Assembly: GCA_020160975.1 (NCBI GenBank)
Contig: JAIUPJ010000001.1
Span: forward strand, 420,001 to 452,000
Source of the DNA: Candidatus Saccharimonadota bacterium
Lineage (GTDB): Bacteria; Patescibacteriota; Saccharimonadia; Saccharimonadales; Saccharimonadaceae
DNA length: 32,000 nucleotides
Direction of reading: 5' to 3'
Made by a program: the position numbers and the translations under genes. This document shows, one piece after another, positions 18,322 through 32,000 of the stretch (positions within the stretch are counted from its first letter, which is position 1; the number at the start of each line of letters is the position of its first letter). The notes beneath the pieces are model-generated. The model was not told where the DNA came from and ran no database searches. It saw only the letters and a list, made by a program, of their open reading frames with translations.

Positions 18322-18330
18322 AGTATACCA
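18322..18330 (-). promoter_or_regulatory. Extended -10 promoter TGGTATACT, 6 nt upstream of the dnaG ATG (leaderless-type)
   Basis: Minus strand reads TGGTATACT-gaaagt-ATG(18315). No SD can fit. Confidence 0.5.
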
Positions 18331-28453: not shown

Positions 28454-29671
28454 TTACGTTGTCATCATGACAAGCAGCGCCGCATTCAGCACCACACAAA
28501 GTGCCACGATTACCATGGCTGCGCGGCTGAGCCATGGTGCATTGACGTGACTCCCCATCACTTGTCGGCTGCGGGTCAATAGCAACAACGGGATCAGCGC
28601 AAACGGAATGCCAAACGACAATGCTGCCTGCGAAATCAGTAACGTAACAGTGGGATCAGCCCCAATCAAAAGTAGCCCGAGCGCCGGAAGAATCGTGATG
28701 AGTCGCCGCACAAAAAGACTGAGGTTTTTGTCATAGAGTCCCGACATGATTGCCGCCCCCGCCTGCGAGCCGACTGCTGTCGATGCAAATCCCGATAGTA
28801 ATAATCCCAGTGCAAATAATGTCGCTATGCCTCCGCCCGCAATCTGCTGGATGCTGTGGTAAATCTGCTCCAGTGTTTCGCTCGGCGCGCCCTGCAAACT
28901 ACTAGCTGCAAACAGTAGCATACTGATATTGACCACTCCCGCAAATGCCAGTGCCACAACAATATCAACCCGCGTCGCCCTCAGTAGCTCAGGAATAGCT
29001 CGTTTGTGGCGCCCTAAAAATCGGTCACGGGACAGCGCCGAGTGCAAATACACCACATGAGGCATGACGGTCGCACCCAACATTGCCACTGCCAACAATA
29101 CCGTGTCCCGGCCAGCCAATTGCGGTACCAGACCGGATACCATATCGTTGATAGCTGGCGGGTGTTGCGCGAGGCCAACAAAAAATCCAAGCGGCAAGAG
29201 CAGCAGCATACCAATAATAATTCGCTCGAACAAAACCTGCTCTCTGCGCGTATAAAGCAAGAGGAGAAGCATCGACACTATGCCAGTCAACACGCCACCA
29301 AGTGGCAATGGGATGCCAAACAGCAAATAGAGTGCCAATGCTCCGCCGACCACCTCTGCGATATCGGTCGCAATCGCCACCGATTCGGCCTGCAGCCAGT
29401 ACATAAATCGCCATTTGCCTATCAATCGCTCGCCGAGCAGTTCGGGTAACGATTTCCCTGTCACGATACCGAGTCGTGCCGACAAATATTGCACTACCAT
29501 GGCCATACCGTTTGCCACTACCAGCACCCATAGCAGCAAATATCCGTGCTGCGCACCGGCACTAAAGTTTGCCGCAAAGTTCCCCGGATCAACATAGGCC
29601 ACCGCCGCCACAAAGGCCGGGCCAAGCAAATGAATGATCCGTCGACTTGTGATTCTACGCGCTGCCAACAT
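28454..29671 (-). CDS. mntH: Nramp-family divalent metal (Mn2+/Fe2+):H+ symporter
   Basis: LGPAFVAAVAYVDPGNFAANF (DPGN motif) and about 11 TM helices across 405 aa, starting from ATG 29671. The longer track ORF (29749) would overlap the upstream gene by 95 nt. Confidence 0.9.
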   Translation of the reverse strand: MLAARRITSRRIIHLLGPAFVAAVAYVDPGNFAANFSAGAQHGYLLLWVLVVANGMAMVVQYLSARLGIVTGKSLPELLGERLIGKWRFMYWLQAESVAIATDIAEVVGGALALYLLFGIPLPLGGVLTGIVSMLLLLLYTRREQVLFERIIIGMLLLLPLGFFVGLAQHPPAINDMVSGLVPQLAGRDTVLLAVAMLGATVMPHVVYLHSALSRDRFLGRHKRAIPELLRATRVDIVVALAFAGVVNISMLLFAASSLQGAPSETLEQIYHSIQQIAGGGIATLFALGLLLSGFASTAVGSQAGAAIMSGLYDKNLSLFVRRLITILPALGLLLIGADPTVTLLISQAALSFGIPFALIPLLLLTRSRQVMGSHVNAPWLSRAAMVIVALCVVLNAALLVMMTT

Positions 29672-30257
29672 ATTTTTGCGCCAGAGGCAGGGTGATGGTA
29701 CGCGTAATATCAGCTCCCCGTGAAAGAGCCGCGATCGGTCGATATTCATATCCGACGTGGATCAGTCTGGCGCCCCGTTTTTTTGCCTGCTGAAGAGCGG
29801 GAAGGAGATCGGTATCGGCACTAACGATAACGAGTTCTGTGTCCTCGCTCGCCTCCACGACGGCACGTACCGCCAAACCGACGTCAACGCCTTTCTCAGT
29901 CAATTTCCAGCTCGCGTGCTGACATTGTTGGCATGGATCAAGTTCGCGCGCACGCAGGTATCCTACCTTAATGAACTGGATTTTTTGCTGCTGAATGTGA
30001 TTCATGAACTTTGCCTGATTACGAATATACCGTTCAGACTTCTCGCGCAGTTCGTCGGTCATGTCATACCGCTGCAGGCGTGCCCCAAACCAGAGAATCT
30101 CGACGGGCTTGTTGTCGCTAAGGAGCTCTTCGAGCAGTCCGCGAAAATCAAAGGCCTGAATGATCTCACGTGCAGCGCGCTTTCCTTGCGCATCAGCAAG
30201 AAGTGTCCGTATACCATACACGAGATTTTCGCCATCGATCAACACCACTCGTCTCAT
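29655..30257 (-). CDS. NYN-domain (LabA/DUF88-like, PIN-fold) protein, putative RNase
   Basis: MRRVVLIDGENL ... EKGVDVGLAVRAV ... LVIVSADTDLLPALQQAKKRG are the conserved acidic motifs of the NYN/LabA family. Start taken at ATG 30257 (alt TTG 30275). It overlaps the mntH start by 17 nt. Confidence 0.8.
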   Translation of the reverse strand: MRRVVLIDGENLVYGIRTLLADAQGKRAAREIIQAFDFRGLLEELLSDNKPVEILWFGARLQRYDMTDELREKSERYIRNQAKFMNHIQQQKIQFIKVGYLRARELDPCQQCQHASWKLTEKGVDVGLAVRAVVEASEDTELVIVSADTDLLPALQQAKKRGARLIHVGYEYRPIAALSRGADITRTITLPLAQKYVGSA

Positions 30258-30319
30258 CTTTACATCATACAACAAAAGACCTCGCGAGGACCGAAATCCA
30301 AGCGAGGTGCTGTACCTGT

Positions 30320-30348
30320 ATTGTACCGTATCATAAACGATGCGTCAA
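30320..30348 (-). promoter_or_regulatory. Sigma-70-type promoter for the NYN-mntH operon: TTGACG-17 nt-TACAAT
   Basis: Minus strand: -35 TTGACG (30348-30343), a 17-nt spacer and -10 TACAAT (30325-30320). It is followed by a leader hairpin ACCTCGC...GCGAGGT and TCTTTTGTTGT (30276-30312). Confidence 0.5.
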
Positions 30349-30540
30349 CATTGCAATAATCATTTGTCAATAGCAGTAGCGTTATATCTCTGTTATGCTT
30401 CATCTCTTTGATGACAATAACACAACATAGGATAACGTCTACCCATAAGTATGAAAAATCATAGTTGACAATCTAATGATTTGCAATCATAAGAACTATC
30501 CCTGCGCTGCCCTTTTCGTAGCGATCGAACTAGCTACTTG

Positions 30541-30583
30541 TGTGATGAATATCACAGACCATCAGAGTCGGCGGGGGTATACT
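30541..30583 (+). promoter_or_regulatory. CRP/FNR-type palindrome TGTGA-tgaata-TCACA (30541-30556) centred ~41.5 nt upstream of the predicted start site of a TATACT (30578-30583) promoter
   Basis: A perfect match to both half-sites of the TGTGA-N6-TCACA consensus, and the only such site in the window. The promoter has no recognisable -35 or TG extension, as expected for an activator-dependent class II promoter. Confidence 0.45.
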
Positions 30584-30606
30584 AAGAAGCACAAAGGAGG
30601 TGGAAG

Positions 30607-30708
30607 ATGAATACAGATAATCAAGAAACCCCACCAGATAGCGGCGAAGTTCGGTCGTGTAATTGCTGCAAGTGTTGCACTTGCAATGACGGATGCGACT
30701 GCAAATAG
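30607..30708 (+). CDS. Unannotated 33-aa cysteine-rich peptide (metallothionein-like or RiPP-precursor-like)
   Basis: Below the track cut-off. AAAGGAGGTG SD sits 4 nt before ATG 30607; the stop is TAG 30706-30708. Translation is MNTDNQETPPDSGEVRSCNCCKCCTCNDGCDCK, with 8 Cys in the last 16 residues. It has its own promoter and a strong terminator. Confidence 0.6.
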   Translation: MNTDNQETPPDSGEVRSCNCCKCCTCNDGCDCK

Positions 30709-30741
30709 TTCACTCTGCACTAGAGTGCACCCTCGCAATAA

Positions 30742-30770
30742 TACACGGCCTACCTAGGTCGTGTATTTTT
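30742..30770 (+). terminator. Rho-independent terminator after the Cys-rich ORF (also faces the convergent CYTH gene)
   Basis: CACGGCCTA-cc-TAGGTCGTG (9-11 bp including one G-U) followed by TATTTTT. It is preceded by a smaller hairpin CACTCT-gcact-AGAGTG (30711-30727). Confidence 0.65.
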
Positions 30771-30778
30771 ATGTATCG

Positions 30779-31366
30779 CTATAACGCCGCACCAAATTCC
30801 TGCGGAACCGGGTCGTCAAACCGTACCAGCGGAATGTCGATAACGCCGCGCACGGACATAGCTGGATAGACCATTCGGTACACCACATCCACACCGCCAA
30901 ATACCGCCTCATCCCAGCTGAATCCAAGTATTGCCGCGGCCTCGCGGATAGAGGCTTCGTTGTCACCCTCGATTTCTATATACGGAGGCATCCAGGGCCA
31001 TACATCGATCACCACCTCAACATCCCCAAGCTTCCAGGTTTCGCGACGCGACTCTTGGTAGGTGTGAAAAATCATGCCACTGGCTTCCAGTAGTGCCTTA
31101 GTAGCATCAAAATCATCCACGGTTGTTTCAATCTCGTTCGCCGCCTCGATGCCAGTTTTTAAATGCTGCTTGTAGGTAAGCGTCACTTTGTTTCCCTCAT
31201 CGCGTAGGCGCAAAAAAGCATCCTTTGCCGCCATGTCAGGAGTTTCCATCAGTGCACGGCGCATCAATCGCATCGGCTGCTCGCACACCGCGCCAGCAGC
31301 AAGCAGACGCTGCTGGATCGCATCAATAGTAATATTGATGAACTTTACTTCGATTTCCGTCTTCAT
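30779..31366 (-). CDS. CYTH-domain protein (class IV adenylyl cyclase CyaB / triphosphate tunnel metalloenzyme family)
   Basis: The N-terminal ExExK signature is MKTEIEVKF. It is followed by FLRLRDEGNKVTLTYK, ANEIETTV and YIEIEG, typical of the CYTH beta-barrel. 195 aa; the start is 4 nt after the nrdB stop. Confidence 0.85.
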   Translation of the reverse strand: MKTEIEVKFINITIDAIQQRLLAAGAVCEQPMRLMRRALMETPDMAAKDAFLRLRDEGNKVTLTYKQHLKTGIEAANEIETTVDDFDATKALLEASGMIFHTYQESRRETWKLGDVEVVIDVWPWMPPYIEIEGDNEASIREAAAILGFSWDEAVFGGVDVVYRMVYPAMSVRGVIDIPLVRFDDPVPQEFGAAL

Positions 31367-31369
31367 ATA

Positions 31370-32000
31370 CTATTTGTCATCGTTCTCGGCTGGCTCGTTC
31401 TCGGTGCCATCACTCGTTTCTTTGAGCTTTGCCTCGGCGTTACCGGCATTGACTTCGTAACTCGTGTTAGTACTTTCAAAGAAGTTAACCAGCTCATAAG
31501 TATCATTGGCCGTCGCCATCCATTTTGCAGGATTAGAGACATTGTAGTGCGGCTCAAATCCGAGCTCCTCGAGACGGCGGTCGGTTAAGTACTTCACATA
31601 CTGGTTAATGTAGTCAGCGTTGAGGCCCAGAATACCATTTGGCAGCAATGCACGGTTATACTCTTCCTCCATCGCCACGCCGTCAAGAATCATTTGCTTA
31701 ATCTCCGCGGCAAATTCCTCATCTTGCAAATCTTCGTTTTCTTCGATCGTAGTCAAAATCAGGTTGATGCCGAACTTGAGATGGAGCGACTCGTCACGCA
31801 CGATCCAGTCAATCAAGCTGCCGAAGTTACGTAACAGATTTCGTTGTCGGAAACTGAGCGCAACCATAAAGCCACTATAGAACCAGATGCCTTCAAGAAT
31901 AATATTGTACGCAACCAAGTTACGGATGAAGTCTTTTTTGCCATCAGTCGTGGTGATGTCCATCGTGTCTTCTGTCATGCGACGGATAAATTTGGTCTCA
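31370..32000 (-). CDS. nrdB: Ribonucleotide reductase class I beta subunit (R2), C-terminal part; gene continues past right window edge
   Basis: ILEGIWFYSGF ... WIVRDESLHLKFGINL (di-iron E-x-x-H helix) ... NFFE...YE, then an acidic C-terminal tail. The frame stays open from 31978 to base 32000 (ETKFIRRMTED...), so the track Met is internal. Confidence 0.9.
   Translation of the reverse strand, partial: ETKFIRRMTEDTMDITTTDGKKDFIRNLVAYNIILEGIWFYSGFMVALSFRQRNLLRNFGSLIDWIVRDESLHLKFGINLILTTIEENEDLQDEEFAAEIKQMILDGVAMEEEYNRALLPNGILGLNADYINQYVKYLTDRRLEELGFEPHYNVSNPAKWMATANDTYELVNFFESTNTSYEVNAGNAEAKLKETSDGTENEPAENDDK

Follow-up and report, generated by a model that had tools for sequence, protein, structure and literature searches.

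We ask here whether a 33-codon open reading frame (ORF) of a Candidatus Saccharibacteria (TM7) species is a gene, and what its cysteine-rich product might do. The ORF runs from an ATG to a TAG at positions 30607..30708 (+ strand) of a 32,000-nucleotide stretch of contig JAIUPJ010000001.1 (assembly GCA_020160975.1, positions 420,001 to 452,000), which is referred to as the window at its full length, and it encodes MNTDNQETPPDSGEVRSCNCCKCCTCNDGCDCK. An initial annotation of the window had proposed an independent gene that was missed for its size. The position, the strand, the length of 33 amino acids (aa) and the 8 Cys within 16 residues given there agree exactly with the sequence and the ORF listing. 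The proposal is supported by the Shine-Dalgarno sequence (SD), a genome-typical -10 element, a correctly oriented terminator, the Cys density and an invariant Cys core, and the ORF is very probably a genuine micro-gene that annotation passed over.

A possible reading of this micro-gene, which we adopt tentatively, is that it encodes a metal-thiolate, metallothionein-like peptide, for which we infer both the metal binding and the regulator. The reading follows from the gene-like anatomy together with a constrained Cys core carrying CxC, CC and CCxCC, and from the lack of aromatic residues and of a fold without ligand. Furthermore, it draws on the metal-importer and metalloenzyme genes in the neighbourhood and on MymT as the precedent of a hidden small ORF.

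The cysteine-rich peptide and its expression signals

The peptide consists of two halves. Codons 1-17 (30607..30657, +) encode an acidic and polar N-terminal half which tolerates substitutions, and codons 18-33 (30658..30705, +) encode the Cys-rich core with the pattern C-x-C-C-x-C-C-x-C-x3-C-x-C-K. The core residues, CNCCKCCTCNDGCDCK, are the final 16 aa of the peptide, and their 8 Cys amount to 24% of the whole peptide and to 50% of the core. They are arranged in the motifs CxC, CC and CCxCC with Lys, Asn, Asp, Thr and Gly as spacer residues, and no Phe, Tyr, Trp or His is present. Small size, high Cys content, CxC and CC motifs and few aromatic residues are the operational criteria for metallothioneins, and the peptide has all of these properties.

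The maximum number of Cys in any 16-aa stretch was 8 for the six frames of the 32-kb window. The same maximum was 4-7 in 200 dinucleotide-preserving shuffles, where 7 was reached in 2/200 and 8 in 0/200. Neither a signal peptide nor a recognisable leader-cleavage motif was found in the peptide. An AlphaFold2 (AF2) model of the peptide has no fold (pLDDT 61); the absence of a fold without ligand is as expected for an apo-metallothionein, and it is weak evidence that is compatible with a metallothionein.

In one strain (L046, 667-834 (-), equal to window 30617-30784 (+)) a 55-aa ORF has been called across the peptide gene. We regard this call as an annotation artefact, since the exchange N5D makes an ATG in the +1 frame and a second change removes a stop, while the other strains are without a start there.

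A textbook SD with a 4-nucleotide (nt) spacer had been reported and is confirmed: AAAGGAGGTG at 30593..30602 (+) matches the anti-SD over 10 nt and is separated from the ATG by 4 nt. It is the sole anti-SD match of at least 8 nt on either strand of the window, and the next best match before any gene is 7 nt. Further upstream, 23 nt before the peptide ATG, the -10 element GGTATACT is located at 30576..30583 (+). This element is the recurrent -10 motif of the genome. As (T)GGTATACT or TATAAT it precedes the ATG by 6-7 nt in several genes, among them dnaG, polA and an RNase T-like gene, and it is also found 27 nt before pyrG, a gene with an SD, the layout there being like that of the peptide gene.

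Gene starts having the motif at 6-7 nt and no SD are for example those at 18327, 14115, 20166, 3009 and 6014 on the - strand. Genes of this kind evidently have leaderless mRNAs. Such mRNAs appear to be common in the organism, so that the 10-nt SD of the peptide gene would stand out the more. Using the genome's own spacing from the -10 element to the ATG in leaderless genes, we predict a transcription start at ~30590-30591 for the peptide gene and a leader of 16-17 nt, which is nearly all SD.

The -35 region of the predicted promoter is weak (CAGACC, 3/6). It is overlapped by TGTGATGAATATCACA, a perfect TGTGA-N6-TCACA palindrome at 30541..30556 (either strand, centre 30548.5), which is a candidate operator for the CRP/FNR family. 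The predicted start follows the centre of the palindrome by 41.5-42.5 nt, and class II CRP/FNR-dependent promoters have such a dyad near -41.5, overlapping the -35 region. No second perfect site is present in the window, where ~0.03 are expected per 32 kb (4^-10), and in 430 kb of Saccharibacteria loci the locus of the window species is the only one with a perfect palindrome. Furthermore, the palindrome is invariant in 10/10 same-species sequences. A scan with the sigma-70 consensus gave no promoter match on the + strand. The claim that the gene has its own regulated promoter is thus borne out in part only, by the genome-typical GGTATACT and the perfect palindrome upstream of it, but not by a sigma-70 consensus on the + strand.

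The assemblies L029 and L030 (metagenome-assembled genome GCA_035405045.1, a 98%-identical strain) break beside the palindrome, at about window position 30537 and ~70 nt before the ORF.

Three other regulatory sites were tried and rejected. A MerR-type promoter would consist of TTGACA (30465-70), a spacer of 19 nt containing a dyad, and TAAGAA, but this -10 element is poor and the dyad suits the - strand promoter of the neighbouring NYN gene better. For a CsoR box only a single GGGGGTAT half-site is present, and for an NrdR box the dyad is of the wrong type.

Two hairpins had been placed downstream of the ORF, the second as a strong intrinsic terminator, and folding against shuffles bears out both. 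The first hairpin (30708..30730, +) overlaps the stop codon and has an energy of -8.0 kcal/mol (z -2.5). It occurs in two strain variants, one mismatch being kept in each, and there is no covariation support. The second one is an intrinsic terminator at 30737..30774 (+) with a stem of 12-13 bp, a loop of 2-4 nt and the run TTTTTAT (hairpin 30737-30770, -17.1 kcal/mol, z -5.8), and its end is 5 nt from the stop of the convergent CYTH gene. In addition, the repeat analysis gave an 8-bp hairpin within the Cys core at 30667-30685 (+; inverted repeat I14). Scanning 29000-32000 against Rfam at E up to 10 gave no riboswitch or known RNA; a CRISPR-DR match (E = 3.9) inside CYTH is due to chance.

A segment in the ORF, GGTCGTGTAATTGC (30653..30666, +), is able to pair with GCAATAATACACGGCC (30735..30750, +) in the 5' arm of the terminator. 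The segment contains GGTCGTGTA, a repeat of the terminator 3' arm (repeats D1 and I5), and folding without the 3' arm gives this pairing as the structure of lowest energy. The pairing is a possible antiterminator of uncertain significance. The ORF might then be a Cys-sensing regulatory ORF, in which the position of the ribosome on the Cys run picks terminator or antiterminator, and read-through runs antisense into the CYTH-nrd operon. The alternative pairing of 14 bp can compete with the terminator, and not even synonymous sites vary in the core. Saccharibacteria also rely on their hosts for amino acids.

The model for such a function is found in mycobacteria, where unannotated polycysteine short ORFs are Cys-responsive attenuators, which are leaderless, located 5' of cysteine-metabolism operons and act in cis (bioRxiv 10.1101/834739). 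With these the window ORF shares the lack of annotation, the runs of Cys codons and RNA structures that involve the Cys codons. However, it has a leader with a very strong SD and its own terminator, and no co-directional gene is located downstream, the next gene (CYTH) being convergent. No cysteine-metabolism genes are nearby among the annotated ORFs of the window. Additionally, the 9-mer repeat behind the alternative pairing has a chance expectation of ~0.08 by our own estimate, covariation has no purchase on sequences that all belong to one species, and a ribosome held up on the first Cys codons would cover the antiterminator arm, which sits badly with the logic of such a switch. By its position the ORF is not an attenuator of the mycobacterial type, and we consider a Cys-sensing function quite improbable.

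Conservation within the species

The same-species set comprised the window and nine sequences (L038-L046) from JGI, ENA and Logan assemblies, with CYTH proteins being 95-100% identical and with 8 haplotypes in total. The ORF is present in all nine loci and intact in 10/10 sequences and 8/8 haplotypes. Within the 503-nt spacer the Cys core together with the stop has 0/51 variable sites, compared with 34/452 elsewhere (Fisher p = 0.038). The N-terminal half has 5/51, namely N2D, N5D, Q6H, P9Q and one synonymous site. This comparison indicates that the Cys core is constrained and the N-terminus is not.

A variable N-terminal half and an invariant C-terminal core within a species are leader/core-like. 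The initial annotation had offered the alternative of a ribosomally synthesized and post-translationally modified peptide (RiPP), in which the N-terminal 17 residues are the leader and the Cys-rich tail is the core. The gene of the modifying enzyme would then lie in another part of the genome. Cys-rich cores are known in ranthipeptides (SCIFF) and in MNIO substrates. However, among the large ORFs (at least 120 aa) no radical SAM, LanM-like, YcaO or MNIO protein, protease or exporter was found in 30.6 kb on the low-coordinate side of the gene and ~7 kb on the other side (L038), which leaves ~37 kb without a maturase-like large ORF. The peptide has no NCBIfam match at E up to 10, the SCIFF model TIGR03973 included, and it carries neither a leader-cleavage motif nor a signal peptide; the genome is furthermore only ~1 Mb. 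The alternative thus found no support. The ORF is not a recognisable RiPP precursor, and that it is one at all appears to us scarcely credible.

Cysteine-rich mini-ORFs beside nrdA

The same genome has a second Cys-rich ORF ~2.3 kb past the window end. It is MDKKCNCSCECCMNCSECNVNLTDDK, directly after nrdA in the operon for ribonucleotide reductase (RNR), at L038 4341-4421 (+) and with the SD AAGGAG. Other nrdA-adjacent mini-ORFs are MTDNTCTCNCECCKSCDTCNK in L020 (2290-2355), MSEDKCTCTCDCCTNCDKCNK in L021 (2373-2438) and MSDVQCDCTCSCCQNCNTCSTK in L016 (2122-2190), and shorter forms are present in L003 (2057-2101) and L022 (1930-1965). The family covers 11-26 aa including the shorter forms and has the pattern CxCxCxCCxxCxxC with a CxxCxxC stretch; the full-length members (L038, L016, L020, L021) have 21-26 aa and SDs. 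In L020, L021, L003 and L022 the ATG of the mini-ORF overlaps the nrdA stop (ATGA). The mini-ORFs are always located upstream of the gene for a conserved protein of 57-60 aa whose C-terminus reads C-[DE]-G-C-[EQ].

The Cys pattern of the family is kept across lineages with CYTH being ~50% identical, where the Cys codons alternate between TGT and TGC. Because the Cys positions are kept through these changes, there is good evidence that the nrdA-adjacent mini-ORFs are translated and selected as peptides, and hence that peptides of this composition are encoded in the phylum, which favours the metallothionein-like reading of the window gene. On the other hand, ~12/17 relatives have no Cys-rich ORF in the RNR operon and one strain group has lost two Cys, which argues that the family is dispensable and fast-evolving. 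The strain group with the two Cys missing consists of L041, L043 and L044. Between strains with CYTH 98-100% identical (L040 and L041-L045 compared with L038), ~11/26 codons of the mini-ORF differ. The spacer between nrdA and the 57-60 aa protein (sp57) is, as judged from these alignments, a hot spot of recombination or hypervariability within the species.

Three AT-rich phage contigs from IMG/VR carry ORFs of 19-20 aa with SDs and the same Cys pattern as the nrdA-adjacent family (L254 2561-2641 (-), L270 4307-4387 (+) and L271 547-639 (+), e.g. MEKCDCKCECCKDCEKCNAE and MNKCECNCECCKNCEDCNK). They are found amid structural and terminase genes and not beside RNR genes. The viral scan with the pattern of the family was also swamped by repeats, and these are the three credible phage mini-ORFs among the matches listed. 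A tblastn search against the phage collection gave nothing, for which low-complexity masking is the probable cause. An exact look-up of nine such peptides in 15 billion predicted proteins found 0/9 present.

The conserved 57-60 aa protein (L038 4436-4609 (+); nrdA-nrdB spacer of L001-L023) is shared by nearly every Saccharibacterial RNR operon, and searches of Pfam, NCBIfam and PDB gave no match for it. NrdA has a Cys-less end here and matches positions 3-788 only of the 822-position NF005101 profile. Since NrdA is without terminal Cys and its profile match is truncated, the redox-shuttle Cys pair of the NrdA C-terminus may have become this separate small protein.

The window peptide and the nrdA-adjacent mini-ORFs share the phylum, the genome (L038), the size class, the spacer residues N, D, E, K, T and S and a strong SD. 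The mini-ORFs have 7 Cys and in several cases a C-terminal Lys, and are found within ~2.3 kb of the window gene. In contrast, their pattern CxCxCxCCxxCxxC differs from CxCCxCCxCxxxCxC in the window peptide, which lacks CxxCxxC. They are also located inside the operon and have no N-terminal extension, whereas the window gene is outside the operon and on the opposite strand. The mean local alignment score of the window peptide to the family was 49.3, compared with 47.0 +/- 5.2 for shuffled cores, and the nucleotide similarity near the ribosome-binding site and start is marginal. The window peptide is of the same type as the nrdA-adjacent mini-ORFs, while homology is unproven and not demonstrable.

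The window gene might nevertheless be a displaced paralogue of these mini-ORFs and serve class I RNR instead of acting as a general metal buffer. Its product would then be an accessory peptide, for example a metallochaperone, a small carrier of iron-sulfur or redox type that helps to assemble the NrdB cofactor, or part of a thiol relay. Small redox proteins (YfaE, NrdI, NrdH) are common in RNR operons, and the window gene is located less than 100 nt past the end of the operon. A Cys-rich ORF follows nrdA in the same genome and recurs in L016, L020, L021, L003 and L022, the family having the conserved CxxCxxC stretch. Set against this are the different Cys spacing and the homology that could not be demonstrated. 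Moreover, the window gene runs convergently to the operon, with a promoter and a terminator of its own, and the ~12/17 relatives without a Cys-rich ORF in the operon imply that such an ORF is dispensable for RNR. A function as RNR accessory peptide is for these reasons unlikely.

A wider proposal is a degree less probable again. It says that the class I RNR of Saccharibacteria has its own class of unannotated Cys-rich micro-proteins of 20-33 aa, of which the window gene would be a second copy under CRP/FNR control, and that the class would work for example as a mini metal-cluster/redox carrier or metallochaperone together with the split-off CxxC tail protein and the NRAMP importer encoded in the operon. 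If true, RNR accessory factors of this kind would be new, phage versions included.

Neighbourhood and weight of a proposed metallothionein-like function

The gene order is nrdB (-, cut by the window end), CYTH (-), the peptide gene (+), NYN (-), NRAMP/MntH (-) and pyrG (-). The peptide gene is convergent to CYTH, divergent from NYN and less than 100 nt past the RNR operon end. From its ATG there are 332 nt to the divergent NYN start (30275) and 858 nt to the start of mntH. The initial annotation had put the gene 350 nt from the mntH operon; this fits the NYN start, with mntH next on the - strand, but not mntH itself.

The NRAMP importer and RNR are conserved neighbours, and most relatives have nrdA, small ORFs, nrdB, CYTH and mntH in one co-directional string. 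In the window species the CYTH-mntH junction is opened and now holds the peptide gene and NYN. NYN is usually located elsewhere, and in the other loci where it occurs its surroundings differ and include no Cys-rich ORF. The CYTH relatives in GTDB genomes are all from Candidatus Saccharibacteria, the best one with 73% identity. CYTH accompanies the RNR operon in all relatives, peptide present or not. Pfam matches among the large ORFs (at least 120 aa) of the window are to replication, transcription, tRNA-synthetase and other housekeeping proteins. The genome is ~1 Mb and the longest contig has 972,972 bp.

The CYTH-mntH junction is a variable slot. Corresponding to window 30276-30778, L047 has nothing, L049 an IS200-like Y1 transposase and L051 an unrelated gene; a Y1 transposase is also located upstream of nrdA in L038. 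No homologue of the spacer was detected in other loci save 38 nt next to NYN. These 38 nt, a hairpin with a T-run at 30276-30313 (- strand) just upstream of the NYN start, recur with 92% identity upstream of NYN in other Saccharibacteria species (L031-L037), whose NYN proteins are 77-80% identical, and might represent a conserved element of the 5'-UTR or of attenuator type. At 30472-30494 an inverted repeat of the form 10-3-10, TCTAATGATT-TGC-AATCATAAGA, overlaps a - strand promoter-like site, and the 10-mer TTGCAAT(A/C)AT is found three times in the spacer (30472-30494, 30351-30360, 30733-30742). The inverted repeat and the 10-mers may be operator sites of the divergent NYN-mntH unit.

For the metallothionein-like peptide, known metallothioneins (MTs) provide the closest comparison by composition. 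Fungal Cu-MTs of the Neurospora type have 25-26 aa with 7 Cys, and the alpha-domain of vertebrate MT contains CCxCC. The window peptide shares with them the tiny size, the high Cys content, the motifs CxC, CC and CCxCC, the absence of aromatic residues and His, and the lack of a predicted metal-free fold. It differs in being bacterial, of the Candidate Phyla Radiation (CPR), in its 17-residue acidic extension, in having no Pfam MT match and in its CRP/FNR-like operator. SmtA/BmtA (PF02069) are cytoplasmic bacterial metal-thiolate proteins of ~55 aa having Cys and His ligands and an ArsR/SmtB repressor, whereas the window peptide lacks both a Pfam match and His, and none of the large ORFs of the window is smtB-like.

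MymT of M. tuberculosis is controlled by the copper-responsive repressor RicR. The BmtA proteins have a zinc-finger-like fold, and MymT is a Cu(I) metallothionein of 4.9 kDa that was found as a small non-annotated ORF (PMC7558416). As in the case of MymT, the window peptide is bacterial, Cys-rich, of a few kDa and encoded by a stand-alone small ORF which annotation missed. Unlike MymT, the peptide gene has no CsoR/RicR-type operator in the window.

A number of results weigh against a metallothionein-like peptide. The peptide fails to match the profiles of the curated metallothionein families (Pfam Metallothio*, PF02069). No match was obtained in Pfam and NCBIfam at E up to 10 (SCIFF model included), among PDB chains at E up to 10, in PHROGs, or in an index of 5.8 billion proteins using the 40-aa stop-to-stop version as query. 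An exhaustive phmmer search of 1.84 billion representative proteins gave 0 matches. What remains of the initial metallothionein candidate is a composition and motifs that fit a loose definition, while Pfam, NCBIfam (E up to 10) and PDB matches are lacking. Of the composition-matched shuffles, 642/2000 score as well as the peptide against the nrdA-adjacent family. Since the synonymous sites of the core do not vary either, selection at the peptide level is inseparable from RNA-level selection and from an effect of low divergence.

The distribution of the gene and the candidates for its regulator belong to the same side. Only one species-level lineage has the ORF; the CYTH-mntH slot lacks it in 23 GTDB species and three other lineages (CYTH at most 75% identical). 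No Crp/Fnr gene (Pfam) and no ArsR/SmtB, CsoR or MerR gene is found among the large ORFs (at least 120 aa) of the 32-kb window, and the only strong dyad beside the -10 element is of the CRP/FNR type, not of the ArsR/SmtB, CsoR or MerR type. A link to cAMP by way of the neighbouring 'class IV adenylate cyclase' was rejected as weak, since CYTH scores 35.6 bits with a cut-off of 58 and goes with the RNR operon in relatives that lack the peptide as well.

Lack of conservation of the ORF or its Cys pattern in relatives had been named at the outset as a ground for dismissing the gene. In this respect the ORF and the Cys core are kept, but within one species-level lineage only, while a similar class of mini-ORFs is present in relatives. 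The species restriction of the stand-alone gene lowers its weight, and the wider unannotated class of mini-ORFs in RNR operons raises it. A metagenome scan with the Cys-codon pattern was uninformative on distribution, since (TGC)n repeats and poly-Cys frames of eukaryotes dominated the matches listed.

A non-functional peptide would account for the narrow distribution. The ORF would then be young or fortuitous, or an RNA element with the three consecutive hairpins 30667-85, 30708-30 and 30737-70, in a spacer rearranged by insertion of NYN between CYTH and mntH. The occurrence in one species-level lineage with the slot rearranged in relatives fits this explanation, as does the absence of a homologue in the protein searches and exact look-ups, the peptide itself having no match when looked up by exact sequence. 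The transcript also folds better than shuffles (z -2.9), and TGCA-rich Cys codons form hairpins by themselves (I14). Nevertheless, chance does not account for the Cys density, none of the 8 haplotypes has a broken frame, the one long SD of the window stands at optimal distance from the ATG, and the ORF has a genome-typical -10 element upstream and a rightly oriented terminator downstream. We consider it clearly unlikely that the peptide is non-functional.

For the preferred metallothionein-like peptide, we infer the transcription, the translation, the identity of the regulator, the metal binding and the physiological role as follows. Transcription would start ~7 nt after GGTATACT, and the promoter, being without a good -35, probably relies on a CRP/FNR-family activator at the palindrome near -42 (class II). 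The leader of 16-17 nt with the strongest ribosome-binding site of the window would give strong translation, and the transcript would stop at the intrinsic terminator. The product would be a cytoplasmic 33-aa peptide with a disordered acidic N-terminal half, whose eight core thiolates would fold round metal ions as a metal-thiolate cluster, and thiophilic ions (Zn, Cu(I), Cd) might be buffered or sequestered by the peptide in this way. The location of the gene between the RNR operon and the NRAMP (MntH) importer fits a role in keeping competing metals off RNR and out of the manganese economy.

If the peptide binds metal, the CPR would gain its first described metallothionein-like protein, which would also rank among the smallest bacterial ones. 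The host genomes are ~1 Mb, where each retained gene is informative. Standard gene calling misses the class of Cys-rich micro-peptides, as seen from the 0/9 peptides among 15 billion predicted proteins. The promoter architecture is a rare candidate regulatory site in a phylum with almost unknown transcriptional regulation. Furthermore, the link between RNR, CYTH and mntH, together with the parallel family in the RNR operon, is a lead on how these epibionts may handle metals or thiol redox for DNA precursor synthesis.

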